Part shown: positions 251 to 43,495 of the stretch, piece by piece | Numbering within the stretch: the stretch's first letter is position 1 | How the letters are laid out: each line of letters begins with the position of its first letter | Assembly (NCBI GenBank): GCA_963767925.1 | Contig: CAVYGB010000001.1 | Coordinates: 224,001-288,000 of the forward strand | Reading direction: 5' to 3' | Length of the DNA stretch: 64,000 nt | Source of the DNA: an uncultured delta proteobacterium | GTDB taxonomy: Bacteria; Myxococcota_A; Polyangia; Fen-1088 | Notes under the pieces: generated by a model | Databases searched by the model: none | What the model saw: only the letters and a program-made list of their open reading frames with translations | Told to the model about the DNA's origin: nothing | Translations under genes and position numbers: made by a program

Positions 251-2737
251 ATGACGCGGGCACGGCCAGAGGTGCTGGCGCCGGCGGGCGATCGCGCGGC
301 GCTGGAGGCGGCGGTGTCGGCGGGGGCCGACGCGGTCTACTTCGGGCTGCCCAGCTTCAGCGCCCGGGCCCGGGCGACCAACGTCGCCGAGGGGGAGCTG
401 GCGGCGGCCATGGCCCACCTGCGCCGCCACGGGGTCAAGGGGTACGTCGCCCTCAACACCCTCCTGTTCGACAGCGAGCTCGAGGCGGGCGAGCGCGCGA
501 TCCGCGCCTGCGCCGAGGCCGGCGTCGACGCCCTGATCGTGCAGGACCTCGGCGTCGCCCAGCTCGCCCGGGCGGTGGCGCCGCAGGTGGCCCTGCATGC
601 CTCGACCCAGATGACCTGCACCGACGCGGGCGCGGTCGAGCTGGCCCGCAGCCTGGGGGCCAGCCGGGTCATCCTGGCCCGCGAGCTGAGCCTCGACGAG
701 ATCGCCGCCATCACCCGCGCCACCACCGTCGAGCTCGAGGTCTTCGTGCACGGCGCCCTGTGCATCGCCTACTCCGGCCAGTGCCTCACCAGCGAGGCCA
801 TCGGCGGCCGCAGCGCCAACCGCGGCGCCTGCGCCCAGGCCTGCCGCCTGCCGTACGAGCTGGTGGTCGACGGGGTGGTGCGCGAGCTGGGCGATCGGGC
901 CTACCTCCTGTCGCCCGAGGACCTCGAGGCGGCCACCCTGGTCCCGCGCCTGATCGACCTGGGGGTGCGGTCGCTCAAGATCGAGGGGCGCCTCAAGAGC
1001 CCGGAGTATGTGGCCGCCACCACCCGGCTGTACCGGGCCGCCGTCGACGCGGCCGCCGGCGGTCGCGCGGTGGCCCCGCGGCTGCGCCAGCAGGCCCTGC
1101 AGACCTACAGCCGCGGCTCGGGGCCGGGCTTCTTCGCCGGGATCGATCACCAGCGGCTGGTCGACGGGACGACCTGCGAGCACCGCGGCCTGCGGGTGGG
1201 CACCTGCGCGGGCGTGCGGCGCTGGCGAGGTGAGCCCCAGATCGTGGTCCACCTGTCCGAGGCGATCGCCCGGGGCGATGGCCTGGTGGTGGCCGGGGGC
1301 CGCGAGGGCGCCGGCGAGGTGGGCGGGCGCGTCTGGCGCATCGTCGCGCGCGGGCGGGAGGTGGAGCGCGCGGCGGCCGGCGCCGAGGTGGGCCTCTGGC
1401 TGGGCCCCTCGGTGGCGCTCGCGGACGCCGGCGCCGGCCGGGCCGTGTTCCGCACCTCGGACCCCGCCGCCGAGCGCGCGGTGCGCGCCGCCCCGCCGGC
1501 CACGGTGGCGCTCGACCTGCGCCTGTCGGGCGAGGCGGGCGGACCGCTCACCCTGAAGGCCCGCAGCGCCCGCGGCCAGCAGGCCGAGGTGGCGGGCGAC
1601 GTCACCTCTGGCCGCTCGGCGGGCGCCCCCTCGACGCCGAGCTGGCCCGGGCCCAGCTCGGCCGCCTGGGCGACACGCCGTTCGTCCTGCGCGATCTGCA
1701 GATCGCGCTGCCCGCCGGGGTGGGGCTACCCACCTCGGCGCTGAACCGGGCCCGCCGCACCCTGGTGGCCGCGCTGGCTGCCCACGAGCCGGCCGTCCTC
1801 CCCGTGGCGCCGGTGTTGCCCGGGCTGCTCGCCGCCGCTGGCCCGCCCGACCGCGCCCCGCCGCCGCCCGGCCTGTTCGTGCTCTGCCGCAACCTGCGCC
1901 CAGGCCCGCGCCGCGGTGGCCGCCGGCGCCGACGGCGTCTACCTCGACATCCTCGAGCTCACCGGCACCGGCGCCGCCCTCCGCGCCCTGCGCGCCGAGG
2001 GGGCCCCGTCGGTGGGCGTGGCCCCGCCCCGCATCCGCAAGCCCGGCGAGGAGAAGATCGACCGCTTCCTGCGCGGCCTGCAGCCCGCCAGCCTGCTGGT
2101 GCGCGGCCTCGGCGCCCTGCACGAGCTGGCCGGCGCCCGCGCCGGGGCGCCGCCCTTCCTGGCGGTGGGCGACTTCTCGCTCAACGTGACCAACCAGCTC
2201 GGCGCCGCCTTCGTGCTGGCCCGCGGCCTCGACGCCTTCACCCCGTCGTTCGACCTCGACGCCGCCCAGCTCCGCCGCCTGTGCGCCGGCCGCCTGGCCC
2301 CCTTCGCCGAGGTGGTCATCCACAACCCCATGCCGCTCTTCCACATGGAGCACTGTCTGTTCGCCGCCCTGCTCTCCGAAGGCCACGACCACCGCGACTG
2401 CGGCCGCCCCTGCGAGCGGCACGCCCTCACCGTGCGCGACCGGGCCGGCCTCGAGCACCCGGTGGAGGCCGACGTCGGCTGCCGCAACACCGTCTTTCAC
2501 GGCAAGTCCCAGAGCGCCGCCGAGCTGGTCCCCGCCCTGCGCAGCGCCGGCGTCCGCCGCTTCCGCATCGAGCTGGTGCGCGAATCCCCCGCCCAGGTCA
2601 GCGCGCTGGTCGGCAGCTACCGGGCCCTCACCGAGGGGACCGCCACCGCCCGCGCCGTCTGGCAGCAGCTCTCCAGCAGCGACTGCACCACCGGCTACGG
2701 CGTCGTGCGCGGCTCCCTCCGCGTCCTGCCCTCCTGA
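251..2737 (+). pseudogene. Peptidase U32 family protein with DUF3656-type C-terminal region (long, RlhA-like type), split by two frameshifts
   Basis: Motifs PEVLAPAG, ELEVFVHGALCIAYSGQC, NRGACAQACR and SLKIEGRLK are in frame 2. QLGRLGDTPF…SALNRARR is in frame 1 (~1625-1896). The C-terminal half resumes in frame 2 (…MPLFHMEHCLF…CGRPCE…DVGCRNTVF). Confidence 0.8.
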
Positions 2738-2754
2738 CGCCGGGTCGCCCCGGG

Positions 2755-3096
2755 TCAGTGCGGGGGGTTGCGGCGTTCGGGGCCGTGGTGGTCCTGGCTG
2801 CGCTTCTTCGTCGAGGTAGCGAAGAGGGAGGCGCGCACCAGGGTGACGACGCGGCCGACGGTGGCCCGGGCCCAGCGGGTGGCCTGGACGGCGTCGGTGG
2901 GGCGGGGCCGGCGGGCGCCGACGACGCAGATGGCGAGGACCCCGGCGGCGAGGCCGAGGTGGATGAGCAGCGCCAGCGGCGGGACGAAGGCGGCGACGAG
3001 GAGGAGGGCGAAGGTCCCGGCTGCGGCCCAGGCCCCCGGTCGCAGCCCGAGCCAGTAGGCGGTCAACCCTCCGACGATCAGGGCAGCGAGCAGCAT
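2755..3096 (-). CDS. Small hypothetical membrane protein
   Basis: ATG 3096; two to three hydrophobic segments followed by a basic tail. Confidence 0.6.
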   Translation of the reverse strand: MLLAALIVGGLTAYWLGLRPGAWAAAGTFALLLVAAFVPPLALLIHLGLAAGVLAICVVGARRPRPTDAVQATRWARATVGRVVTLVRASLFATSTKKRSQDHHGPERRNPPH

Positions 3097-3232
3097 CCCC
3101 CAAGTCTCCCCCACTGCGGGGCGTTGGCAAGCCCCCTCTGTCGGTCCTGGCCGGGCCCGAGGCTGGCGAGGGAAACCCCTGGTCGGGCCCGAGCGTGGCG
3201 AGGGAACCCGGTATTTTTTCGGGGACAGTCTC

Positions 3233-4165
3233 TCAGCGGGCGGTGGCGGTGGCGGCGGCGGGGGGCGGGGCGGCCGGCGGCGGGTCGGGGGTGGACAGCA
3301 GGGGCCGGTTCAGGCCGGACTTGATGACCCGGGTCCGCAGCAGGTGGGAGACCAGGTCGATCAGGGCGACGACCGCGGTGATGAGGAGGATGATGAACCC
3401 CACCTCCTCCCAGCGGTGGGCCCGGATCCGGTCGGACAGGGCGAAGCCGATGCCGCCCGCGCCGATGATGCCCAGGATGGTCGCCGACCGCGTGTTCGAC
3501 TCGAACATGTAGAGCACGTTCGACAGCATGATCGGCAGCACCTGGGGGAGGATCCCGAAGCGCATGGTCTTGACCGCGCTGCCGCCGGTGGCGCGCACCC
3601 CCTCCACCTGTTTGCGGTCGACGTTCTCGATGGCCTCGGCGAACAGCTTGGCGAAGATGCCGATGTCGGTGGTGGCGATGGCGAGGACGCCGGCCAGGGG
3701 GCCCAGGCCCACCGCGCGCACGTAGACCAGGGCCCACACCAGCGCGTCGACCCCCCGCAGGAAGTCGAACGAGCGCCGGATGGGGAAGCGCAGGAGCCGG
3801 CTGGCCAGCACGTTGCGCGCGCCCAGGAACCCCAGGGGGAAGGCGATGACCGCCGCCAGCAGCGTGCCCAGGAAGGCCATCCCGAGGCTCTCCAGCATGG
3901 CCCGCAGCAGATCGGCGAGGGCCTCGCCGGCGGTGGGCGGGACCAGGCCGCTGGCGATCTGCCCGGCGCGGCCCAGCCCCTTGACGACGCGCGACCAGGA
4001 GACGTCGAAGCGCACGAGCGAGAACACCACGAACGCGACAACCCCGATCGCCAGGCCGATCCGCAGCGCCCGCTCGCCGGGCGGGCGGGCGAAGGCCCGG
4101 GGATAACGCCCGCGGAGGGCGGCGAGCTGAGCGCCGTCGATCGCGCCGCCGGATGGCAGGCTCAT
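3233..4165 (-). CDS. phnE: Phosphonate ABC transporter permease
   Basis: EAIENVD…GVRATGG EAA loop; FESNTRSATILGIIGAGGIG motif; ATG 4165 overlaps the upstream stop (ATGA). Confidence 0.9.
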   Translation of the reverse strand: MSLPSGGAIDGAQLAALRGRYPRAFARPPGERALRIGLAIGVVAFVVFSLVRFDVSWSRVVKGLGRAGQIASGLVPPTAGEALADLLRAMLESLGMAFLGTLLAAVIAFPLGFLGARNVLASRLLRFPIRRSFDFLRGVDALVWALVYVRAVGLGPLAGVLAIATTDIGIFAKLFAEAIENVDRKQVEGVRATGGSAVKTMRFGILPQVLPIMLSNVLYMFESNTRSATILGIIGAGGIGFALSDRIRAHRWEEVGFIILLITAVVALIDLVSHLLRTRVIKSGLNRPLLSTPDPPPAAPPPAAATATAR

Positions 4166-33930: not shown

Positions 33931-34222
33931 TCGGCCCGGCGATAGCGGACTCATGTAACGCCGCCTCCGAATCGAAGCGCTCGACTCGCAGGCACCGGAG
34001 GCGTTCGCCGCTGAGGTGTCGCTCGCGCGGCCGCCTGGCTGCGCCCCGCGGGGGCGACCGTGCACGATGGCTGGAGCAGATCGGAGGATTTCCTGCCGCG
34101 ACCGGTTGGCCTTAACGGACGAGCCGGTATATTTTGCGGGAAATGATGGCGGATGGCTCGGTTAGGCTCTAACCAAGCTCCTACCTGTCACCACCTTGTC
34201 GTTCACCGAAGGAGCCTCATCC

Positions 34223-35938
34223 ATGACCACTGTTTTCACGAGACCATCCGGGCCGGGCGCCGGCTCGAGAGGGGGCCTCGCGGCGCTCCTTCTGTTACCT
34301 CTGCTGGCCCTGCTGGCCTGCGGCTCGGACAAGCCGCCGCCCCCGCCGGTGACCGGGGTCGTCGCCGGGGATGGCGGCGCCGCCAGCCCGTGTGGCGGAC
34401 CGGGACAGCCTTGCTGCCAGGCGAACACCTGTGAAGGCGGCGGCTGCTGCGTGCCGGTCTCGGGGGGCAACGGCATCCGCGTCTGTATCGGGGCCGGCCA
34501 GACCTGCACCGGCGGCGGCTCGACCGGCACCTGCAACAACGGCGCCTGCGCCACGGTGGCGGGCGCCCCCTGCGGGCTGACCGGCCAGGCCTGCTGCGGG
34601 ATCAACGCGACCGGCGGCGGCGGGTTCTGCAGCGGGGACTCGGCCAGATGCACGATGGGCACCTGCCTCGAGTGCGGCGGCCCCGGTCAGCTCTGCTGCC
34701 AGGGCGGTGACGCCTACGCCTGTTCGAGCGGCCTGCAGTGCCTGGACAACGGCATGGCCGGTCCGGACACCTGCGGCCAGTGCGGCGGGCCCGACCAGCG
34801 CTGTTGCTCGGACGACGAGTGCGAGACCGGGCTGAACTGCGCGGGCGGCGGCGCCGGTGTGCCGGAGATGTGCCTCGCCTGCGGCGGCGCCGGGCAGCCT
34901 TGCTGCGACAACGACACCTGCAGCGCGGGGCTCGGCTGCTCCGATCCGCCCAACACCGATGGACCGGGGACCTGCACCGCCTGTGGCGGGAGCGGCGAGG
35001 CCTGCTGTCCAGGCGCCAACTGCCAGTCCGGCTTCGGCTGCACGGGGGTCGTGATGGGCATGGGCGGCACCTGCTCGGCGTGCGGCAAGGCCGACCAGGC
35101 CTGCTGTCCGGGCGGCGGCCCGACCGCCTGCGAGTCCGGCCTCGGCTGCGTCGTGGCCACCGGGGGCAACAAGTGCGGCGCCTGCGGCGGCGCCAACCAG
35201 CCCTGCTGCGGCTCGGGGAACACCGGCAACTGTCCCACCGCTGGGCTGGTCTGCACCGGGCGGGGCATGGGCAATCCCGGCACCTGCAACGCCTGTGGCG
35301 CCGCCGACCAGCTCTGCTGCGCCGGGGACAACCCCTGCCGGATGGGGCTGGGCTGCGTGGCGGGCGCGGCGGGCAACCGCTGCGGCACCTGCGGCGCCAT
35401 GGGCCAGGTCTGCTGCGGGACCGGCGGCGCCGGTACCTGCACCGGCGCTGGGCTGGGCTGCGGCGGGCGGGGCGCGGGCAACCCCGGCACCTGCACGACC
35501 TGCGGGGCCGCCGGCCAGGCCTGCTGCAGCATGGGCGGGTCGTGCCAGGGTCCCCTCGGCTGCGTGCAGAGCCCGACCGGCAACACGTGCGGCACCTGCG
35601 GCGCCCTCGGCCAGGTCTGCTGCGGGTCCGGTGGCACCGGCGACTGCCAGGGCGGCCTCGGCTGCAGCGGTCGCGGGATGGGCAACCCGGGGTCCTGCGC
35701 CGTCTGCGGCGGCCCCGGTCAGCCCTGCTGCGACGACAACACCTGCGCGGCCGGCCACCGCTGCGCCATGAGCATGTGTCGCCCGTGCGGGGCCATGGGT
35801 CAGGTCTGCTGCCCCGGCGGCGGGGTCGTGAGCTGCGCCCCGGGCCTGTCCTGCAGCGGCAACGCCAACAACGTCGCCAACACCTGCGCCCCCCCCGCCC
35901 CGCCCGCCCCGCCCGCCGACGCCGGCGTCAACGGGTGA
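34223..35938 (+). CDS. Cys-rich repeat lipoprotein
   Basis: LLALLAC lipobox; 14 copies of CGxx(G/D/N)(Q/E)xCC; AAGGAG RBS. Confidence 0.85.
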   Translation: MTTVFTRPSGPGAGSRGGLAALLLLPLLALLACGSDKPPPPPVTGVVAGDGGAASPCGGPGQPCCQANTCEGGGCCVPVSGGNGIRVCIGAGQTCTGGGSTGTCNNGACATVAGAPCGLTGQACCGINATGGGGFCSGDSARCTMGTCLECGGPGQLCCQGGDAYACSSGLQCLDNGMAGPDTCGQCGGPDQRCCSDDECETGLNCAGGGAGVPEMCLACGGAGQPCCDNDTCSAGLGCSDPPNTDGPGTCTACGGSGEACCPGANCQSGFGCTGVVMGMGGTCSACGKADQACCPGGGPTACESGLGCVVATGGNKCGACGGANQPCCGSGNTGNCPTAGLVCTGRGMGNPGTCNACGAADQLCCAGDNPCRMGLGCVAGAAGNRCGTCGAMGQVCCGTGGAGTCTGAGLGCGGRGAGNPGTCTTCGAAGQACCSMGGSCQGPLGCVQSPTGNTCGTCGALGQVCCGSGGTGDCQGGLGCSGRGMGNPGSCAVCGGPGQPCCDDNTCAAGHRCAMSMCRPCGAMGQVCCPGGGVVSCAPGLSCSGNANNVANTCAPPAPPAPPADAGVNG

Positions 35939-36097: not shown

Positions 36098-37027
36098 TCA
36101 GGCCGGGATGGGCCCGAACTTGCCCTCCTCGACGTCGACGAAGGCCTGGCGGATCTCGTCGAAGGTGTTCATCACGAAGGGGCCGTATTGCACGATGGGC
36201 TCGTCGAGCGGCTGGCCGGCCAGCACGATGACGTGGCTGCTCTCGAGCGCGGTCAGCTCCAGGTGCTCGCCGTCGTTGGCGAACAGGATCAGCTCCCCCG
36301 CGCCGGCCTCGACGTCCCCCGCGCGCACCTTTCCCCTGGCGACAACCGCCAGGGCGTTGTGGGTGGCGGGCAGGCTGACCGGCAGGCGCCCGCCGGCCTC
36401 GAGGCGCGCGTCCAGCATGGTGATCGGGGTGAAGGTGTGAGCGGGACCCTGGGCGCCGGCGTGGGCTCCGGCGATGACCCGCACCGATCCGCCCGCTTCG
36501 AGCGGCACGCTGGGGATGTCGGCCGAGGTGATGGGTTGATAGGCGGGCGGCGCGCCCTTGTCCTTGCGGGGCAAGTTCACCCAGAGCTGCATCATGTGCA
36601 TCGGGCCACCGGCGCGGCTGAAGCGCTCCTCGTGGTACTCCTCGTGGAAGATGCCCGCTCCCGCGGTCATCCATTGCACGTCCCCGGGGCCGATGATCCC
36701 GGCGTGGCCGGCGTTGTCCCGGTGGGCGACGGCGCCTTCCCAGGCCAGGGTGACGGTCTCGAAGCCGCGGTGGGGGTGCCAGCCGACGCCGCGCTTGCCC
36801 TGGGGCAGGGGCGCGAAAGGCTTGGGCGGGCCGTAGTCCATCAGCACGAAGGGGCTCACCCGTTCGGCCGGCAGCTTGCCGCTGGGAAAGTAGGTCGACA
36901 CGTGAAAGCCGTTGCCGACCCAGTGGAACGTGGTGCTGTGAAAGACGCCCTCGACGCTGCGGGTGCTGCTGGGCGCAGTCTGGGCGCGGGCTGTCGCGAG
37001 CGGCGGGGCGCTGGCTGAATTCGACAT
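36098..37027 (-). CDS. Pirin family protein
   Basis: WHPHRGFETVT, WMTAGAGIFHEE, QLWVNLP, YGPFVMNT. Confidence 0.93.
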   Translation of the reverse strand: MSNSASAPPLATARAQTAPSSTRSVEGVFHSTTFHWVGNGFHVSTYFPSGKLPAERVSPFVLMDYGPPKPFAPLPQGKRGVGWHPHRGFETVTLAWEGAVAHRDNAGHAGIIGPGDVQWMTAGAGIFHEEYHEERFSRAGGPMHMMQLWVNLPRKDKGAPPAYQPITSADIPSVPLEAGGSVRVIAGAHAGAQGPAHTFTPITMLDARLEAGGRLPVSLPATHNALAVVARGKVRAGDVEAGAGELILFANDGEHLELTALESSHVIVLAGQPLDEPIVQYGPFVMNTFDEIRQAFVDVEEGKFGPIPA

Positions 37028-37085: not shown

Positions 37086-38042
37086 TCACCCGGGGTGATT
37101 GGCGGCCGGGCCCTTGGTGGGCGCCACCGCCTTGCGGCACAGGTCGGTCAGGCGATCCTGGGCCCACCCGGCGACTGGACCCATCACAGCGTTGCGGCGC
37201 CAGACCAGCACCAGGGCGCGCCGGGGGGCCACCGCGCCCCAGGCGTCCAGGGGCAATTCGACGAGGCGCCCGGCGCGCAGGTCCTCGCGCACGAGGTGCT
37301 CGGGCATGTGCCCCCAGCCGAGGCCGCCGGCGATCAGCGCCTGTTTCGTCGCCAGATCCACCACCCGCCAGGTGCGGGTCGACAGCACGCCCTTATCGTC
37401 CTTCTTGCTCTCGGCCTCGTGGCGGTGCTCGCCGAGCACGATCTGCACCGCCTGGTCCAGGGTGGCCGCATCGATCGGGCTGTTCGGATCTTCGGGGTGG
37501 GCCAGGGGATGTTCGCGCGCGGCTACCGGGATGAGACGCACGTCCGCGATCGCCCGGCGGTCGAGATCGCCGAGGTCGGCGTCCTCGATGGCGATGCCCC
37601 AGGCCGCGCGCTTGTCCCGCACGTGCGCCGTCACCGCCGAGAGGATCTCGGTGAACAGCACGAGCTGGACGCCGGGGTGGGCGCGGGCGAAGTCCTGCGC
37701 GAACCCGACCAGCGATGCGGTCGGGAACAGGACGTCCACGACGATCCGCAGCGTCGTCTCCGCGCCCCGCTTGAGGTGGCCCACCAGCTCGTCCAGGGCA
37801 TCGACCTCGGCGCCCACCTTGTCGGCGGCGGAGACGACGGCCTCCCCGTGTGCGGTCAGGACCGGGACCCGCCCGGTGCGGTCGAACAGCCGCAGCTCGA
37901 GCTGCGCCTCCAGCCGATCGATCGACTGGCTGACGGCGGCCTGGACCCGTCCGAGCTGGCGCGCGGCCGCCGAGAAGCTGCCCGCCGCCGCCACCGCGCG
38001 CAAGGTCCGGAGCTGCTCGAACGTCACGCCCTCGATCGACAT
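37086..38042 (-). CDS. LysR family transcriptional regulator
   Basis: GSFSAAARQLGRVQAAVSQSIDRLE…LFDR HTH; GLGWGHMP. Confidence 0.93.
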   Translation of the reverse strand: MSIEGVTFEQLRTLRAVAAAGSFSAAARQLGRVQAAVSQSIDRLEAQLELRLFDRTGRVPVLTAHGEAVVSAADKVGAEVDALDELVGHLKRGAETTLRIVVDVLFPTASLVGFAQDFARAHPGVQLVLFTEILSAVTAHVRDKRAAWGIAIEDADLGDLDRRAIADVRLIPVAAREHPLAHPEDPNSPIDAATLDQAVQIVLGEHRHEAESKKDDKGVLSTRTWRVVDLATKQALIAGGLGWGHMPEHLVREDLRAGRLVELPLDAWGAVAPRRALVLVWRRNAVMGPVAGWAQDRLTDLCRKAVAPTKGPAANHPG

Positions 38043-38149
38043 GACGCGAATCTACGCCGTCCGCTCGGTCCGGTCGACAGAGGGGCTCCGGTAGCCAGAG
38101 GACCGTCATCGCGACGGACGAGCGTGGCCTCGAGCGGCGACCGCAAACC

Positions 38150-38360
38150 TGGGCGGGGCGAACCTGGGCGGCAGCAACCTCGGTGGCTCCAACCCGAGCG
38201 GCAGCAAGTCTGGGGCAAGACCGAGTGCACCAACAGCTCGGGCTGGACCCGCTGCCCGGTCACCTGCGATCCCGCCGCCGGCCTGCAGGTGCGCATCGGG
38301 ATCGGTCTCGGCACCGACAGCGGCGAAGGGCCCATCGACAACTTCAGCCTGGTCCAGTAA
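38150..38360 (+). pseudogene. Probable 3' remnant of a carbohydrate-binding-module-like gene
   Basis: …SSGWTRCPVTCDP…IGIGLGTDSGEGPIDNFSLVQ*, with no plausible start. Confidence 0.3.
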
Positions 38361-38378
38361 GAGGGCCTCGGCGGCCCC

Positions 38379-38576
38379 TCAGCGGCGGCGCCCGGCCCGC
38401 TTGTGGGCCAGGCTCTCGGCGGTCAGGTCGAGGCCCACGCGATCGATCGGGCCCAGCCCTTCCACCCCGGCCGCGCGCGCCTCCCCCTCGGGGTCGGCGA
38501 GGAACCGGGCGCGGGCCGTTGGGTCCACGTAGATCCGGGCGAGCAACGCCTCCAGCCGCTCGGCCGCGTCGCTCAT
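38379..38576 (-). CDS. Small helical protein, putative MNIO partner
   Basis: MSDAAERLEALLARIYVDPTARARFLADP…; ATG overlaps the MNIO stop (ATGA). Confidence 0.75.
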   Translation of the reverse strand: MSDAAERLEALLARIYVDPTARARFLADPEGEARAAGVEGLGPIDRVGLDLTAESLAHKRAGRRR

Positions 38577-39445
38577 GCCGTGCTCCGCAGGGCGGTCAGC
38601 CGGGCGCGGCCGGCGGCCAGGGCGACGCGGGCCTGCTCGAGCTCGGCCAGCAGCGGGTCGACGCCCGCGAAGCCGCCGTCGCGCTCGATGAGCACGGTCA
38701 GCGGACGGGGGGTGAGCGCCCCCACCTCGGACAGCAGGTCTAGGACCGCGGGTGGGACCGGGTGCTTGTGGTCGTCGAGCAGGCGCCGCTCGCCCCGGCT
38801 CGTCGCGACCCAGCGCCCGCCCGCGAGGTGGACGGCGGCGATGCGGTCGGCGGGGAGCGCCGCCAGCAGCGCCCGCGGCTGGTGCCCGAAGTTGAGCGCG
38901 TTGGCGTACAGGTTCTGCAGATCGAGCAGCAGGTCGCAGCCCGTGCCCTCGAGGATGGCGGACACCCAGCTCGGCTCGTCGAGGACGCTGCCGGGCGGGG
39001 CGATCAGGGTGGCCACGTTCTCCAGCAGCGGGCGGGCGCCGATCACGGCGGCGGCGCGGGCGACGTTGCGCACGGTTCCGGCGATGGTGGCCGGCGTGCG
39101 GGGCGGGGCGCACAGGTGGCCGATCTCCATCCCGCCCCCGCGCACGAAGGCCAGGTGCTCGGACCAGAACCGCGGCCGGACCAGGGCGGCGACGCGGGCG
39201 AAGAGCGGCAAGCGCGCCTCGTCCACCGGAGCAGCCGAGGCCAGCCCGAGCGAGACCCCGTGCAAGACCACCGGCACGTTGGCCGCCAGGGTCTCGAGCG
39301 CCCGCCACTCGGCCGGCGGGGCGTGGAAGAAGTCGTCCGCCATGACCTCGACCACGTCGATCCGATCCAGGTTGGCGAGGATCCCGGCGGCCAGCGGCCG
39401 CCGCCAGCCCAGCCCGAAGCAGTCGTCGATCTGGCGGCCCGTCAT
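38573..39445 (-). CDS. DUF692 family multinuclear non-heme iron-dependent oxidase (MNIO)
   Basis: GLGWR, HGVSLGL, WSEHLAF, LLENVA, LLLDLQNLYAN, VHLAGG, DDH, VLIERD; ATG overlaps the upstream stop. Confidence 0.9.
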   Translation of the reverse strand: MTGRQIDDCFGLGWRRPLAAGILANLDRIDVVEVMADDFFHAPPAEWRALETLAANVPVVLHGVSLGLASAAPVDEARLPLFARVAALVRPRFWSEHLAFVRGGGMEIGHLCAPPRTPATIAGTVRNVARAAAVIGARPLLENVATLIAPPGSVLDEPSWVSAILEGTGCDLLLDLQNLYANALNFGHQPRALLAALPADRIAAVHLAGGRWVATSRGERRLLDDHKHPVPPAVLDLLSEVGALTPRPLTVLIERDGGFAGVDPLLAELEQARVALAAGRARLTALRSTA

Positions 39446-40326
39446 CCCCCACACCCGCCGCAGCCCCCGCCACCGCCACAGCCCCCCCCGCCGCCGCAGG
39501 ACGAGCCGGAGGCGCCACAGGAGGCGCCGCCGCCCGAGCGGCTGGCCGCGGCGTGGGCCCTGGGAAACAGGCTGGCGACCCGCCCCTGGTACAGCGCCGG
39601 CGCCGCCGCCAGGCCGAACACGCCCAGCAGCAGGGCCAGCTCGTTGGTGCTTCCGTCGGTCGGGAGGCTCTCGCGCCGGGCGTGCAAGCCCCCGAACAAG
39701 GTGCGCAGGTCGGCCAGCAGGCGGTCGCCGCGGGTCGTGCGCGGGTGGCGGAGGATCCAGGCCAGCAGCAGCAGCGCGATGACCGCGCCGAAGATCAGGA
39801 ACAGGACGTTGTGGCGGCCGCGGCTGAGCGCCACGAACACCTTCACCGAGGCCACCGCCGCCAGGACCGCCGCCGCCAGCAGGCCCAGCCCCCAGCGCGC
39901 GCTGCTCTGTGCCTGATCGGGGATCAGCCCCTGGCGCCGCAGCTCGGCCCGGAGCTCGAGGCTCGCGGCCAGGACCTGCCGGTTCCCGTTCAGGGCGTGC
40001 CCCTTCTGCGGCTGGCGGCAGGCCTCGAGGATCGCCCGCTCGATCGGCCGGCGGACGCGCCTGGCGGCCTGGTCGTCGGCGGCGCGGACCAGGTCCCCCT
40101 CCTGCTTCAACAGACCCCGTTCACACAGGGCCAGCGTCACCAGCCGGATCGCCTCGTTCTCCTGCCCGCGCAGGAAGGCCGCCAGGTAGGGATCCATGTC
40201 GGGCAGACGCGGGACCGGCCCGTCCTCGTTGCGCTGGCGCCGGCGCCTGACGACAACCAGGACCAGCACCGCGAAGGCGGCGTAAAACAGCAGGAACGCC
40301 GGCCCGGGCCAGTCGAACGGATTCAT
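39442..40326 (-). CDS. TIGR04222-type membrane protein with Gly/Ser/Cys-rich C-terminal tail
   Basis: MNPFDWPGPAFLLFY, DPYLAAFLRG, three TM segments, T-x-x-G motif, tail GGGASCGASGSSCGGGGGCGGGGGCGGCGG. Confidence 0.85.
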   Translation of the reverse strand: MNPFDWPGPAFLLFYAAFAVLVLVVVRRRRQRNEDGPVPRLPDMDPYLAAFLRGQENEAIRLVTLALCERGLLKQEGDLVRAADDQAARRVRRPIERAILEACRQPQKGHALNGNRQVLAASLELRAELRRQGLIPDQAQSSARWGLGLLAAAVLAAVASVKVFVALSRGRHNVLFLIFGAVIALLLLAWILRHPRTTRGDRLLADLRTLFGGLHARRESLPTDGSTNELALLLGVFGLAAAPALYQGRVASLFPRAHAAASRSGGGASCGASGSSCGGGGGCGGGGGCGGCGG

Positions 40327-40374
40327 GCCCACCTCATCGTCTCGGTCCGCATCGCGCCCGTAAGCATCGCCCCG

Positions 40375-41100
40375 TCAGCGCACCTGCTGGGCCCGCCCGT
40401 GCAGCGCCTGGGCCAGCTCCGCCAGGCGCAGCAGGGTGGCCGCGCCGCTGCCGGGCGCCAGCGCCCGCTGCTGGCGGGCTTCGCTGATCTGGGCCAGCAG
40501 GGGCTCCCAGGGACCGCCCGGCAGCGCTCGCGCCACCTCGGCCAGCGCCTCCCGGGGGCCGGGGGCAGGCTTTCCCTCCAGCTCGAGCAGGGCGGCGGCC
40601 GCCGAACGCAGGGGACCGGCCGCGTCGGCCACCGCCAGGGCCGCCTGCTCGTCGCGCAGGCTCTGCAGCACGTAGCGCTCCCGCAGCCGCAGCGTCAGGT
40701 TCAGCAGCACCTGCCGGCAACGGGCCAGCTCCGCCGGCCGCGAGATGGGCAGGTCGGCGAACGGATCGCTGCCGTGGAGCACCCGATGCCGCCGGCGAAT
40801 GTCGGCGAACTTCACCGCAAAGGCCTCCGCCGCCGCCGGCACCTCCTCGGCCAGGATGAACATCGCCTCGAGAGCGATCGCCGCGTGGCTCAGCCGGAAC
40901 GGCTCGCGCAGCCGATCGACCGCCGCCGCGTCGAACCGGCGAAGCACGACGATGAGGTTGACGTCCGAAGTAGGCCGCCACTGCCCCTCCGCCCCGCTGC
41001 CGAACAGGACGACCGACACGAGATCCGCCCCGAGCACCTCGCGGGCCGCGCTGACGAACAGCTCCAACCCACGCTCGACCGGCCCAGGCAACGGCGACAT
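40375..41100 (-). CDS. Nucleotidyltransferase domain protein (Pol-beta/MNT fold plus helical domain)
   Basis: SVVLFGSGAEG…SDVNLIVV; FAVKFADI…VLHGSDPF. Confidence 0.8.
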   Translation of the reverse strand: MSPLPGPVERGLELFVSAAREVLGADLVSVVLFGSGAEGQWRPTSDVNLIVVLRRFDAAAVDRLREPFRLSHAAIALEAMFILAEEVPAAAEAFAVKFADIRRRHRVLHGSDPFADLPISRPAELARCRQVLLNLTLRLRERYVLQSLRDEQAALAVADAAGPLRSAAAALLELEGKPAPGPREALAEVARALPGGPWEPLLAQISEARQQRALAPGSGAATLLRLAELAQALHGRAQQVR

Positions 41101-41243
41101 CTGCGGCGTCACCGCCCCATCTTAAACCCCCTCACCGAAGCCGGCAACGGCGCCAGCCAGCTCGTCCTGCGCCTCACGCCCCCCAGCCACCGCTGAGGGA
41201 GGTTCATCGAGCGTTGCCGCCCAGGCGGGAGCAGCCGCAGGCC

Positions 41244-41620
41244 CTACTCGACGAGCTGCACGGGGACGAAGCGATCCGGCGGGATCTCGTCGAGGAGATC
41301 CGCAGGTACTGCTGCCTGGCGGGGCGGCCGGGAGCTATCTCGAGCGACTCGACACAGCCCGATCCGACGCGGTCGTAGACCTTCGTCCCCGAGTAGCCGC
41401 TGCCGACGGGGTGGATGGCGAGCCGTCCATCCCGCCACGATTCGGCATAGGCTCCCAGGACCTGGTCGGTCACCAGCGGCTTCGTGCACGTCGGGTCGCC
41501 GAAGAACTCGGCCGGCTTGTCCAGCACGCCGGTTTTGGGGGAGACAGCGGAGCTGCCCCTCGGAGGCGACGCGCGGCCGGCAGGGGACGCCCAGCTCGAG
41601 GTCGGTGGGCGGATAGGTCA
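41244..41620 (-). pseudogene. Frameshifted remnant of a Cys-repeat module homologous to the C-terminus of 8980-12696
   Basis: DLELGVPCRPRVASEGQLRCLP / FFGDPTCTKPLV…HPVGSGYSGTKVY…GC / DEIPPDRFVPVQLVE*. Confidence 0.55.
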
Positions 41621-41719
41621 GGTCTGTCTGTCGTCGTCGGTTGTTTGTCGCATATTGCAACAAGGTGACGGCGGCGGGTCTGGCGTGGGCTACCAATGGG
41701 GCCGGGAGAACCAGCCTCG

Positions 41720-43495
41720 ATGTTGACGAGCAGACCATTTCATCTCGCCGGTGTGTTGTGCCTGCTGGCCTCCTGTGTGGAGCCCTACGACGGTCCCGAC
41801 CTGGCGATCGTCGATGCGGGCCCGGGGATGGCGGGGGAGCGCGATGGCGGGGCGGTGCCCTCCGGGAACGCCGACGGACCGGCGCCCGGCGAGAGCCTCG
41901 ACGGACCGGCGCCCGGCGAGGGCCTCGACGGGCCGCCGCCCCCCGCAGCGGTGGTCTGTCCAGCGGGGTTCCATGCCTGCCGCGACCGCTGCGCGTCCGA
42001 CACAGATCCCGACACGTGCGGCGTGGCCTGCGAGCCCTGCCCGTCGATCCAGGGCGGGGGCCGCACCTGCGACGGCCGCAAGTGCGGCATCACCTGTCCG
42101 GCCGGCAGCAAACCCTGCCTGGACGCCTGCGTCCCCGACAACGCCCCCTGCGACAACACCTGTCAGCCGGGGCAGAACCTGTGTGGCGGCCTGTGCGTCG
42201 ACGGCAAGAGCGTGAGCGCCTGTGGCCCGACCTGCTCGCCCTGTCCCTCCTCGCCCAGCGGCACCCCCTCCTGCGACGGCGAGAAGTGCGCGCTCGCCTG
42301 CAAAGCGGGCTTCCACCGCTGCGGTGACAGGTGCGAGAGCGACAGCAGCACCGAGGCCTGCGGCCCCTCCTGCCTGGCTTGCCCGGTCCCGGCCGGCGGC
42401 AAGGCCACCTGCCGCAGCGGCCAGTGTGAGTTCGACTGCCCGGGCGGGCGCAAGTGCGGCAACCTGTGCATCGCCAACGACCTGCCCTGCAACGGGGCCT
42501 GCCCGGGCGGGATGCGCGTCTGCAACGGGCGCTGCTTCCCCAACGATGCGGGACCGTGCTGCGTGCCGGGCAGCAAGCGCTGCAACCCCAACGGGCGCGC
42601 CGTCCAGACCTGCAGCGGCAACGCGGCCTTCGCCGACAGCGCGAGCTGCCCCCTGGGCTGCGACGCGGCCCGGTCGGCCTGCATCACCTGCCAGCCGCGG
42701 ACGGAGGTGTGCAACCGCCAGGACGACGACTGCGACGGCGAGATCGACGACAACGTGGCTCCGGTCCCCTGCAGCCCGGCCTGCGCCGGCAACCAGATCT
42801 GCCGGCCCGGGTCGGGGCTCGACGCCTCCTCCTGCGCGCCCACCAACACCGTCGAGCGCTGCGGATCGAGCTGCACCCGCTGCCCGGCCGCCCCCGACGG
42901 CGGCACCATGGCCTGCGAAGGCGGCCGCTGCGTGGCCCGCTGCCCCGGCGCCACCCTGTGCGGGGGCCGCTGCCTGCCCGCCGATCGGGTGTGCGACGGC
43001 CGCTGCGACCAGATCCGCTGCCGCGCCGGCTGCGTCCCGGCCAGCACGGGCTGTCCGCCCACCCGCCCGCTGCGCCTCTTCTTCAGCGTCCCCCGGCTCG
43101 ACAACTACACCACCGGCACCGAGGCCGGCGCGTCCAACGCCGTCAACTCCGGGTACTTCGACGCCGGCACCATGGGCCACCTCGAGAGCGCCCAGCTGCC
43201 CGGGACCAAGCCGCTGTTCTGCTACTTCAACCCGACCACGGGCGACAATCTGGTCACCGACGCCTCCTCGCCCCCCGGCGGGTTCGGCCCCTGCAACCTG
43301 GGCAACGGCAACGTGGAGGGCTTCGTCTACGGCAGCGCCCGCGCCGACACGGTCCCCCTCGTCCTGTGGCTCAACGACAGCGACCGCAGCGACCACCACC
43401 TCATCAGCGACGGCTTCCAGTCCGACAGCGACCTCACCGGCCAGAACTACCGCAAGCTCCGCACCGTCGGCCACGCCCTCCGCCGCCCGAACTGA
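41720..43495 (+). CDS. Cys-rich lipoprotein with a C-terminal repeat domain
   Basis: LLASC lipobox; many Cys modules; EVCNRQDDDCDGEIDD metal-binding-type motif; C-terminal T-x-PL…DN/DH repeats. Confidence 0.8.
   Translation: MLTSRPFHLAGVLCLLASCVEPYDGPDLAIVDAGPGMAGERDGGAVPSGNADGPAPGESLDGPAPGEGLDGPPPPAAVVCPAGFHACRDRCASDTDPDTCGVACEPCPSIQGGGRTCDGRKCGITCPAGSKPCLDACVPDNAPCDNTCQPGQNLCGGLCVDGKSVSACGPTCSPCPSSPSGTPSCDGEKCALACKAGFHRCGDRCESDSSTEACGPSCLACPVPAGGKATCRSGQCEFDCPGGRKCGNLCIANDLPCNGACPGGMRVCNGRCFPNDAGPCCVPGSKRCNPNGRAVQTCSGNAAFADSASCPLGCDAARSACITCQPRTEVCNRQDDDCDGEIDDNVAPVPCSPACAGNQICRPGSGLDASSCAPTNTVERCGSSCTRCPAAPDGGTMACEGGRCVARCPGATLCGGRCLPADRVCDGRCDQIRCRAGCVPASTGCPPTRPLRLFFSVPRLDNYTTGTEAGASNAVNSGYFDAGTMGHLESAQLPGTKPLFCYFNPTTGDNLVTDASSPPGGFGPCNLGNGNVEGFVYGSARADTVPLVLWLNDSDRSDHHLISDGFQSDSDLTGQNYRKLRTVGHALRRPN

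Follow-up and report, generated by a model that had tools for sequence, protein, structure and literature searches.

When a MNIO (DUF692) oxidase is encoded without a small precursor peptide beside it, which protein does it modify, and with which partner? The question is raised by a 64,000-nucleotide stretch (the window) of contig CAVYGB010000001.1 from an uncultured delta proteobacterium of the Polyangia, in which neighbouring minus-strand genes encode a nucleotidyltransferase-fold protein (g0), a TIGR04222 membrane protein with a Gly/Ser/Cys tail (g1), an MNIO (g2) and a protein of only 65 amino acids (aa; g3). The labels follow the cassette order, residue numbers refer to the window's proteins and all coordinates are collected in Table 1. 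An earlier reading of this DNA from its letters alone (the sequence-only reading) had proposed that the oxidase acts on the tail of the membrane protein itself. On balance we consider it probable that the MNIO and g3 together oxidise tail cysteines of g1 into metal-binding heterocycles. The sequence-only reading called the system uncharacterised, and this holds for experiments: literature searches on MNIO with NHLP, with membrane or precursor, and with transmembrane or cysteine-rich found no experimental work on such a system. It does not hold for the idea of the tail as MNIO substrate, which is reasonable but not new, being in print as a hypothesis (PMC12452194). New here are the assignment of g3 to NHLP/LigA and its occurrence in natural fusions with the MNIO, the frequent presence of a nucleotidyltransferase with a D-x-N motif, the invariant terminal CGGCG of the membrane protein and the strict synteny across phyla.

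Read base by base, g1, g2 and g3 form a minus-strand chain linked by ATGA stop/start overlaps at 39445-39442 and 38576-38573, which suggests that their translation is coupled. This chain, the Cys-tailed g1 and the MNIO motifs were all present as the sequence-only reading had described them, and its family assignments stood, with g1 matching TIGR04222 over residues 13-242 at 103.9 bits (cut-off 43) and g2 matching PF05114 over its full length at 219.1 bits (cut-off 25). Its count of three genes has to be raised to four, since the conserved g0 directly upstream had been missed.

The arrangement recurs in other genomes. When one genome per species was scanned with a g3 alignment of 10 rows, 64 loci were obtained; they were scored on six-frame translations with local hidden Markov models built from g1 and 120 homologues, from five MNIOs and from the g3 family alignment A1 described below. 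Acidobacteriota supplied the majority, and the loci extended to Thermoanaerobaculia, Planctomycetota, Verrucomicrobiota, Chloroflexota (Limnocylindria), Elusimicrobiota, Methylomirabilota, Binatia and records named Polyangia or "delta proteobacterium". MNIO-homologous sequence lay directly upstream of g3 on the same strand in all 64 loci (continuous in 60, in two pieces in L070, in four in L100 and as a C-terminal fragment only in L093 and L101), and a TIGR04222 gene lay upstream of the MNIO in 58 of them. The six misses are contig ends (L049, L058, L064, L077) and remnants (L093, L101); wherever there was room and an intact MNIO, the order TIGR04222, MNIO, g3 was kept (58 of 58). Co-occurrence of the three genes, whose failure the sequence-only reading had named as grounds for giving up its proposal, thus took the form of strict synteny, and because the gene order recurs in so many loci from other genomes it is not due to chance. 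In L093 and L101 the MNIO fragment alone precedes the g3 homologue, TIGR04222 being missing, and both look like copies in which the cassette has decayed or been rearranged; in L100 all cassette genes are broken into several frames. Within the window's own class, L035 and L036 have the same gene order, as has L034, a duplicate of L067. A strong g3 match was found in 4 of 301 sampled genomes of this class (the window's included) and in none of 46 in the window's family, and a genome of the same genus keeps nucleotidyltransferase, TIGR04222 and MNIO genes up to a contig end. Such a patchy distribution is as expected for a mobile accessory module and would fit horizontal scattering.

No conserved free precursor accompanies the cassette. 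Among open reading frames (ORFs) of at least 120 aa beside it in the 64 loci no conserved family except g0 was found, and among ORFs of 40-130 aa within 900 nucleotides (nt) no family occurred in more than 5 of the 64 loci; the small-ORF families recurring in up to 5 came from close relatives and lay in all frames. In the window, the 336-nt gap between g3 and a LysR gene holds a plus-strand open frame with three Cys, ending ...ECTNSSGWTRCPVTCDP...GPIDNFSLVQ, which we rejected as a precursor given that its start is at best a possible GTG and that 5 related genomes contain no match. The earlier statement that no free precursor is visible nearby is therefore correct insofar as no conserved small ORF flanks the cassette, but it needs qualifying, since g3 itself is a RiPP-leader-like NHLP/LigA domain (RiPP, ribosomally synthesised and post-translationally modified peptide). 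The genome has only one other MNIO. It lies on contig C8 (locus L001, 1423-2361, minus strand), reaches 351.9 bits against the BufB model, above the cut-off of 310, and is followed by a DUF2063/HvfC-type partner gene (609-1814, minus strand), and by these matches it is a separate, self-contained classical BufB and DUF2063 system. A 77-aa ORF (2454-2687, minus strand) upstream of that MNIO, which matched no family, may be its precursor.

The candidate target is the end of g1. The protein starts with MNPFD, as do 33 of the 35 aligned homologues, and has the layout typical of TIGR04222 proteins, with several transmembrane (TM) segments ahead of a low-complexity tail of Ser and Gly in which Cys residues are dispersed. 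Its C-terminus, GGGASCGASGSSCGGGGGCGGGGGCGGCGG, contains five cysteines (C270, C277, C283, C289 and C292), the tail composition is 20 Gly, 7 Ser and 5 Cys, and the final residues read ...SCGASGSSCGGGGGCGGGGGCGGCGG. In all 35 of 35 cassette TIGR04222 proteins G286, G288, C289, G290, G291, C292 and G293 were invariant, giving the ending ...GxGCGGCG[G/S], and C289-G-G-C292-G stayed invariant in an alignment of 149 TIGR04222 relatives, whereas the Cys repeats further upstream vary. Across loci the last 60 aa hold 2-9 Cys, usually in SCGSS repeats, and the tails are Ser-rich. Because low complexity alone would not give such invariance, the C-terminal CxxC-like motif is under selection. The window's genome has a single TIGR04222 gene. 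Several loci without g0, of Blastocatellia type (L050, L053, L056, L062, L063, L071, L074), carry acidic SSDGG-type inserts between the Cys repeats of the tail; they may be close kin, and we claim no correlation with the absence of g0. A minority of close g1 homologues (P0156, P0164, P0178 and others) have a precomputed PF20990 match, while g1 itself had none at E<=0.01.

The oxidase g2 has the motifs SEH, LEN, LLD, HLAG, DDH and IERD that the sequence-only reading had listed. Among 51 MNIOs of the subfamily the residues H62, S95, E96, H97, E142, N143, D175, N178, H206, D224, D225, H226, H228, E254, R255 and D256 are invariant or at least 90% conserved, so that the conserved His/Asp/Glu/Asn metal-ligand positions of the PF05114 TIM barrel are in place, and by analogy with MbnB structures we take the conserved motif residues to be iron ligands. 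Matches in the PDB were 3bww (E 2e-21), TglH (1.9e-10) and MbnB (~1e-5). BufB and HvfB are the nearest types by sequence, g2 scoring 183.7 bits against the BufB equivalog NF050167 (cut-off 310) and 133.4 bits against the HvfB equivalog NF003818 (cut-off 360), below the cut-off in both cases.

The third protein of the chain belongs to a family of its own. A word-index search with g3 returned 2 relatives only; an exhaustive HMMER search over 1.84 billion representatives returned 209 at E<=1e-3, mostly of 60-125 aa. Alignment A1, composed of g3 and 109 small relatives (matches longer than ~110 aa and the spurious matches P0053, with HEAT repeats, and P0083 were left out), has a conserved core of ~60 aa with near-invariant E9, L12, A13, Y16, D18, F25, P29, L38, D45, G48, L49, S55, K59 and R60. 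Of its 110 members, 91 matched NCBIfam NF038399 ("Os1348 family NHLP clan protein") at E<=1e-3, the best at 8.2e-12, and 25 matched "NHLP-related RiPP peptide", the Pfam matches being LigA (82/110), Frankia_peptide (63/110) and Nif11 (8). The window's g3 reached 25.1 bits against NF038399, below the cut-off of 40, and is by this score a superfamily relative of the Os1348 NHLP-clan proteins, not a curated member.

Structural comparison pointed to the same superfamily. The AlphaFold2 (AF2) model of g3, with a pLDDT (predicted local distance difference test) of 90.2, consists of four helices, and VIA-align singled out Os1348 (6lk7_A) as the one chain among 48,161 to reach Z>=5 (Z 6.5, root-mean-square deviation (rmsd) 3.8, 65/65 residues, 23% identity), the next being a proteusin precursor at Z 4.5. 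Foldseek gave nothing at E<=1e-3 for the model, its top rows being a proteusin precursor, nitrile hydratase, OphA, SonA and DesB, and the family profile had weak PDB matches (E 6e-4 to 6e-3) to nitrile hydratase alpha, LigA-domain proteins, SonA, Os1348 and the C-terminal LigA-like domain of gallate dioxygenase. Hence g3 is an NHLP/LigA-type domain, a fold that serves RiPP precursors as the leader docking on enzymes, without a core peptide. The usual PME-type 1 partner of MNIOs (DUF2063, PF09836, plus a RiPP recognition element (RRE), ~250-260 aa) was ruled out for g3 by its length of 65 aa and by the lack of a DUF2063 signal, none of the 110 family members matching DUF2063 at E<=0.1 and hhalign giving a probability of 0.25% between the g3 profile and the DUF2063 domain of the window's own genome. 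As for a PME-type 2 partner (resemblance to NGO1945, 3dee, or to TglI, 8hi7), the TglI chain 8hci_C aligned with g3 at Z 4.0 (62 residues, rmsd 2.7), tied with unrelated rows.

The g3 family has no conserved Cys, and 55 of the 110 whole proteins lack Cys altogether. Behind K59-R60 follow tails of 3-46 aa (median 24.5) with 23% Arg and 4.4% Trp, which are net positive in 109 of 110 members and contain Cys in 12 and GG in 15, with no conserved position; in the window's g3 this part consists of the five residues AGRRR. By composition such a tail looks like a membrane-surface or electrostatic tether, unlike a core peptide. Furthermore, MNIO and g3 share one stop-free frame in 12 of the 64 loci (L056, L067, L074, L091, L095, L096, L097, L100, L101, L103, L104 and L106, with L100 and L101 degenerate). 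Among the longer HMMER matches, P0033 (400 aa), P0057 (369 aa) and P0084 (366 aa) consist of a full MNIO domain followed by a g3-like domain, and P0094, P0106, P0139 and P0011 are fragments of this fusion type. Such gene fusion argues for physical association of the two proteins, for which the ChrH-type C-terminal domain encoded separately as the small MelHc, pulled down with the MNIO MelH, provides a precedent (PMC13056109). A protein of 683 aa in the representative library (P0029) runs from TIGR04222 through a garbled stretch into MNIO and g3, the MNIO-g3 junction being in frame; its TIGR04222 tail reads as if frameshifted, Ala/Val-rich and not Gly/Cys, and the apparent triple fusion probably reflects a frameshift from sequencing or assembly, or else a pseudogene. 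We favour g3 as a small subunit or adaptor of the MNIO, because its tail has this character, its gene follows that of the MNIO, the two occur as fusions and it is g1 that carries the invariant Cys motif.

It is improbable, in our judgement, that g3 is instead the true or a second substrate, that is, an NHLP-type precursor modified by the MNIO on a non-Cys residue, with the MNIO-g3 proteins as enzyme-substrate fusions and TIGR04222 as scaffold, exporter or immunity protein. The matches of the family to NF038399, "NHLP-related RiPP peptide" and Frankia_peptide fit this explanation, and enzyme-core fusions exist in the OphMA-type borosins. It is further in its favour that the best structural matches are Os1348, which is itself only a proposed precursor (PMC7726476), and a proteusin precursor, with SonA found by profile, and that MNIOs modify Asp, Asn and Phe besides Cys (PMC13056109). 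However, the conservation of g3 sits in the folded domain and its short C-terminal part offers neither a conserved residue nor a GG-type cleavage motif, and in the window it comprises only five residues. Measured against an NHLP/Nif11-type RiPP precursor, g3 falls short: core peptide and cleavage motif are missing, and no protease, transporter or exporter family is conserved in or beside the cassette. Moreover, g3 occupies the partner position after the MNIO and TIGR04222 the precursor position (PMC12452194), and the invariant CGGCG tail would be left unexplained.

The locus is a compact, conserved operon-like module of four genes in the order nucleotidyltransferase-like g0, TIGR04222 g1, MNIO g2 and NHLP/LigA-like g3. 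From the families and their context we infer that MNIO and g3 act together in the cytoplasm as a heteromeric enzyme, in which g3 would replace the usual DUF2063/RRE partner in this subfamily, and that the pair oxidises cysteines of the Gly/Ser/Cys tail of g1, above all those of its invariant C-G-G-C-G end. Analogy with BufB, HvfB and MbnB suggests that the modified residues may become heterocycles of the thiooxazole or oxazolone-thioamide type. The TIGR04222 body would keep the product, a peptide that binds metal and probably copper, fixed to the inner membrane, and the Arg/Trp-rich tails found in relatives of g3 might hold the enzyme at the membrane surface beside its substrate. The tail as substrate is supported by an independent proposal in PMC12452194 that Cys-tailed TIGR04222 proteins are MNIO substrates.

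On which side of the membrane the tail lies bears on this mechanism. Hydropathy of g1 shows three strong hydrophobic helices (8-26, 145-166 and 173-193) with a soluble domain of 110 aa between TM1 and TM2, and the AF2 model (pLDDT 90.1; predicted template modelling score, pTM, 0.82) places helices at 8-34, 138-168 and 175-192. Arg clusters follow TM1 (RRRRQR) and TM3, so that by the positive-inside rule the 110-aa domain and the loop 194-228 would be cytoplasmic; for other TIGR04222 members, in contrast, "large periplasmic domain(s)" are described (PMC12452194). Before the tail, the family consensus reads LAAVFGxGAL...F.Y..LFPxA with an invariant G238. This pre-tail segment has a hydropathy (KD(19)) of 1.5-1.6 in g1 and ~1.4-2.0 in homologues (several below 1.4) versus 2.2-3.0 for TM1-3, and the model gives it no more than short helices (229-237, 244-253 and 255-264, pLDDT 89-96) ahead of a disordered tail (266-294, pLDDT below 50). 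The segment may be either a marginal fourth TM helix or a recognition segment. As for the fold of the 110-aa domain, none could be assigned, since Foldseek and VIA-align with the g1 model gave generic helical-bundle matches only, the best at Z 11.6 compared with a guide value of ~13 for helical folds.

Several points weigh against modification of the tail by the MNIO-g3 pair. With the marginal segment 229-246 spanning the membrane, the tail would be periplasmic, and modification by the cytoplasmic MNIO would therefore have to precede translocation, as in bufferins; without such a crossing, the tail would be cytoplasmic. The case for tail modification is drawn from sequence and gene context. 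The scores of g2 below the BufB and HvfB equivalog cut-offs mean that its chemistry may differ, and g3 has its nearest relatives among precursor proteins (Os1348, proteusin leaders, SonA) and not among enzyme subunits. In addition, a third of the complete genomes with TIGR04222 have no MNIO at all (490 of 1372 genomes in Table 3 of PMC12452194) and more than a quarter of TIGR04222 proteins have no C-proximal Cys (PMC12452194), and therefore the TIGR04222 body has a function independent of MNIOs. Finally, the proposed mechanism assigns no task to g0.

The MNIO-less genomes also speak for an alternative that we hold to be still more improbable than g3 as substrate, namely that the tail is left unmodified and its thiols bind metal or an Fe-S-like cluster directly, in the manner of a metallothionein or CxxC motif, while MNIO, g3 and g0 act on a small molecule or another protein and are co-located for regulation or metal supply. 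The terminal CGGC is indeed a CxxC-type motif. Prediction of a complex of MNIO, g3, g1(222-294) and three Fe lent docking of the tail on the enzyme no support, its score of 0.04 against a mark of 0.32 counting neither for nor against binding. The absolute coupling of TIGR04222 and MNIO in the g3-bearing subfamily and the stop/start overlaps in the window argue against this alternative, and every characterised MNIO that we considered (PMC13056109) has as its substrate a ribosomal peptide or protein from a neighbouring gene.

The fourth gene, g0, encodes an ANT/AadA-like N-terminal domain followed by a helical domain. It scored 21.5 bits against PF01909 (cut-off 21), its ANT matches being weak, and Pfam Polbeta was matched by 33 of the 34 members of its family, whose profile also matched AadA-type adenylyltransferases in the PDB (7uy4_A, E 1e-5). 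The hG[GS] motif and the downstream E90 of ANT/AadA-like enzymes are present and the second carboxylate is replaced by Asn52: the motif G38-S39...S49-D50-V-N52 has D-x-N where the canonical form has D-x-[DE] (S-D-V-N versus S-D-I-D in AadA), and G38, S39, D50, N52 and E90 are invariant in the 34 sequences. A g0 homologue lay directly upstream of TIGR04222 and co-directional with it in 33 of the 48 loci in which more than 800 nt were available there, 15 of these roomy loci being without g0; there were 3 further partial copies at contig ends. In a genome of the window's family (G003, locus L006), a TIGR04222 gene with a Cys tail (2487-3548, plus strand) and an MNIO gene are divergently oriented; the open frame of the MNIO continues for ~200 aa beyond the MNIO domain, and behind it lies a g0-homologous nucleotidyltransferase (35% identity, E 8e-21) with the canonical D-V-D. 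This locus contains no g3-like sequence, and hhalign of the g3 profile with the ~200-aa extension showed no relation. A nucleotidyltransferase thus is linked to the TIGR04222-MNIO pair in two architectures. That nucleotidylation by g0 is the decisive step, e.g. O-AMPylation of the Ser-rich tail or of an intermediate made by an MNIO that is a tailoring and not the core enzyme, is the least probable of the explanations and very unlikely, since in spite of the retention of g0 beside TIGR04222, the homologue in the g3-less locus and the Ser-rich tails, its absence from 15 roomy loci makes it dispensable for the core system, and the Asn that invariably replaces the second catalytic carboxylate may reduce or change activity.

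The proposed modification of the g1 tail by the MNIO and g3 can be compared with what is described for TIGR04222 proteins. More than 3,500 of these, mostly actinobacterial, were collected in PMC12452194 (Microb Genom 2025), where their genes often stand just before MNIO genes and their Ser/Gly tails contain Cys; they are the largest group of candidate MNIO substrates without a signal peptide. It was hypothesised there that subsets of TIGR04222 proteins are MNIO substrates with tails facing the periplasm, on bioinformatic grounds and with no experiment reported. The same source finds no DUF2063 genes in TIGR04222-MNIO clusters, PME-type 2 proteins (DUF2063-like by HHpred) in at least 10% and many clusters without a recognisable partner, and leaves uninterpreted a group of "very small proteins" (adjamnio-V) that follow MNIO genes and have no structural homologue. 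The present cassette is alike in having a Cys/Gly/Ser-tailed TIGR04222 gene directly before a bufferin/oxazolin-like MNIO and no DUF2063 gene; it differs in that the protein after the MNIO could be assigned to NHLP/LigA, is fused to the MNIO in some genomes and has no DUF2063 signal. The window's g3 may be part of the adjamnio-V or PME-type 2 sets. The main text of PMC12452194 does not mention "nucleotidyltransferase", "NHLP", "nitrile hydratase" or "LigA", and a link of an NHLP/LigA-type protein to an MNIO was not found in the literature searched.

Among characterised systems, BufABC and HvfABC have the nearest MNIOs; BufB- and HvfB-type enzymes act on Cys (PMC13056109), their substrates have Cys followed by Gly, and their copper-binding products function outside the cytoplasm (PMC12452194, PMC13056109). 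Their precursors, however, are small and carry Sec signals, and their partner is DUF2063 plus RRE, whereas here the candidate substrate forms the C-terminus of a polytopic membrane protein, a 65-aa NHLP/LigA-like protein is the partner and a nucleotidyltransferase-fold gene is added. MelH/MelHc (PNAS 2026, PMC13056109) resembles the proposed pair in that a C-terminal MNIO domain is represented by a small separate protein that binds the MNIO in a stable complex, and in RiPP-lipoproteins (PMC13056109) MNIO-modified peptides likewise remain anchored to the membrane. The differences are that MelHc is a ChrH-type C-terminal domain and that anchoring there is by lipidation of a secreted peptide, compared with a multi-pass protein here; in the fused MNIO-g3 proteins checked, the ChrH model matched up to its position 259-261 of 363 and left the g3 region unmatched. 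With Os1348, NHLP-clan and LigA-domain proteins g3 has in common the small all-helical fold and the signature ...YxDxxxRxRFLxDP...AGL.... Members of this superfamily dock on partner enzymes, as separate proteins or fused to them (DesB, matched at residues 321-366; the titles of SonM-SonA complexes). Unlike them, g3 has no core peptide and is linked to an MNIO, not to cyclodehydratase, epimerase or methyltransferase genes.

These comparisons allow a bolder proposal, which we put forward tentatively and regard as possible but doubtful: a "three-piece RiPP", in which the leader-type g3 is split from the core and activates the MNIO in trans or as a fusion, the core is the CGGCG end of a membrane protein and the D-x-N protein g0 is a further component. 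Such a system would be a natural counterpart of the leader-enzyme fusions that chemists engineer, and its membrane protein would have a post-translationally built metallophore as C-terminus. MNIOs are among the fastest-growing families of peptide-modifying metalloenzymes, and the locus offers a clean minimal four-gene subfamily with the CGGCG motif, a 65-aa partner fused in some genomes and an atypical nucleotidyltransferase as handles. Should the tail prove to be modified, g1 would carry the first MNIO product built on an integral membrane protein and g3 would be a new type of partner derived from RiPP leader domains, with a bearing on the evolution of leader recognition and on the bacterial handling of copper or other metals at the membrane.

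Table 1. Cassette genes, parts of g1 and neighbouring features, in positions of the window.
Feature	Position	Strand	Description
g0	41112..40375	-	245 aa, nucleotidyltransferase-fold protein; 48 nt upstream of g1
g1	40326..39442	-	294 aa, TIGR04222 membrane protein
g1 conserved pre-tail segment	39556..39642	-	aa 229-257, LALLLGVFGLAAAPALYQGRVASLFPRA
g1 Gly/Ser/Cys tail	39445..39534	-	aa 265-294, 5 Cys; candidate MNIO target is the terminal G286-x-G288-C289-G290-G291-C292-G293
g2	39445..38573	-	290 aa, MNIO (DUF692) oxidase
g3	38576..38379	-	65 aa, four-helix NHLP/LigA-superfamily domain; proposed MNIO small subunit/adaptor
Open frame beside g3	38124-38360	+	three Cys; rejected as precursor
LysR-family regulator	37086-38042	-	downstream of the cassette
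Pirin	36098-37027	-	downstream of the cassette
Large ORF	34196-35938	+	580 aa
Large ORF	41696-43495	+	599 aa

A scan of 37900-41800 gave 0 promoter and 0 terminator sites, and a search of sequencing runs listed no RNA run and two DNA runs with small shares (0.07 and 0.06). The LysR and pirin genes, on the same strand as the cassette, are not conserved beside it in other genomes. On either side of the cassette region lies a large plus-strand ORF for which no NCBIfam or Pfam family was matched; both encoded proteins have signal-like N-termini and repeated Cys-rich modules of the C-G-x-C-G-G-x-G-Q-x-C-C type.

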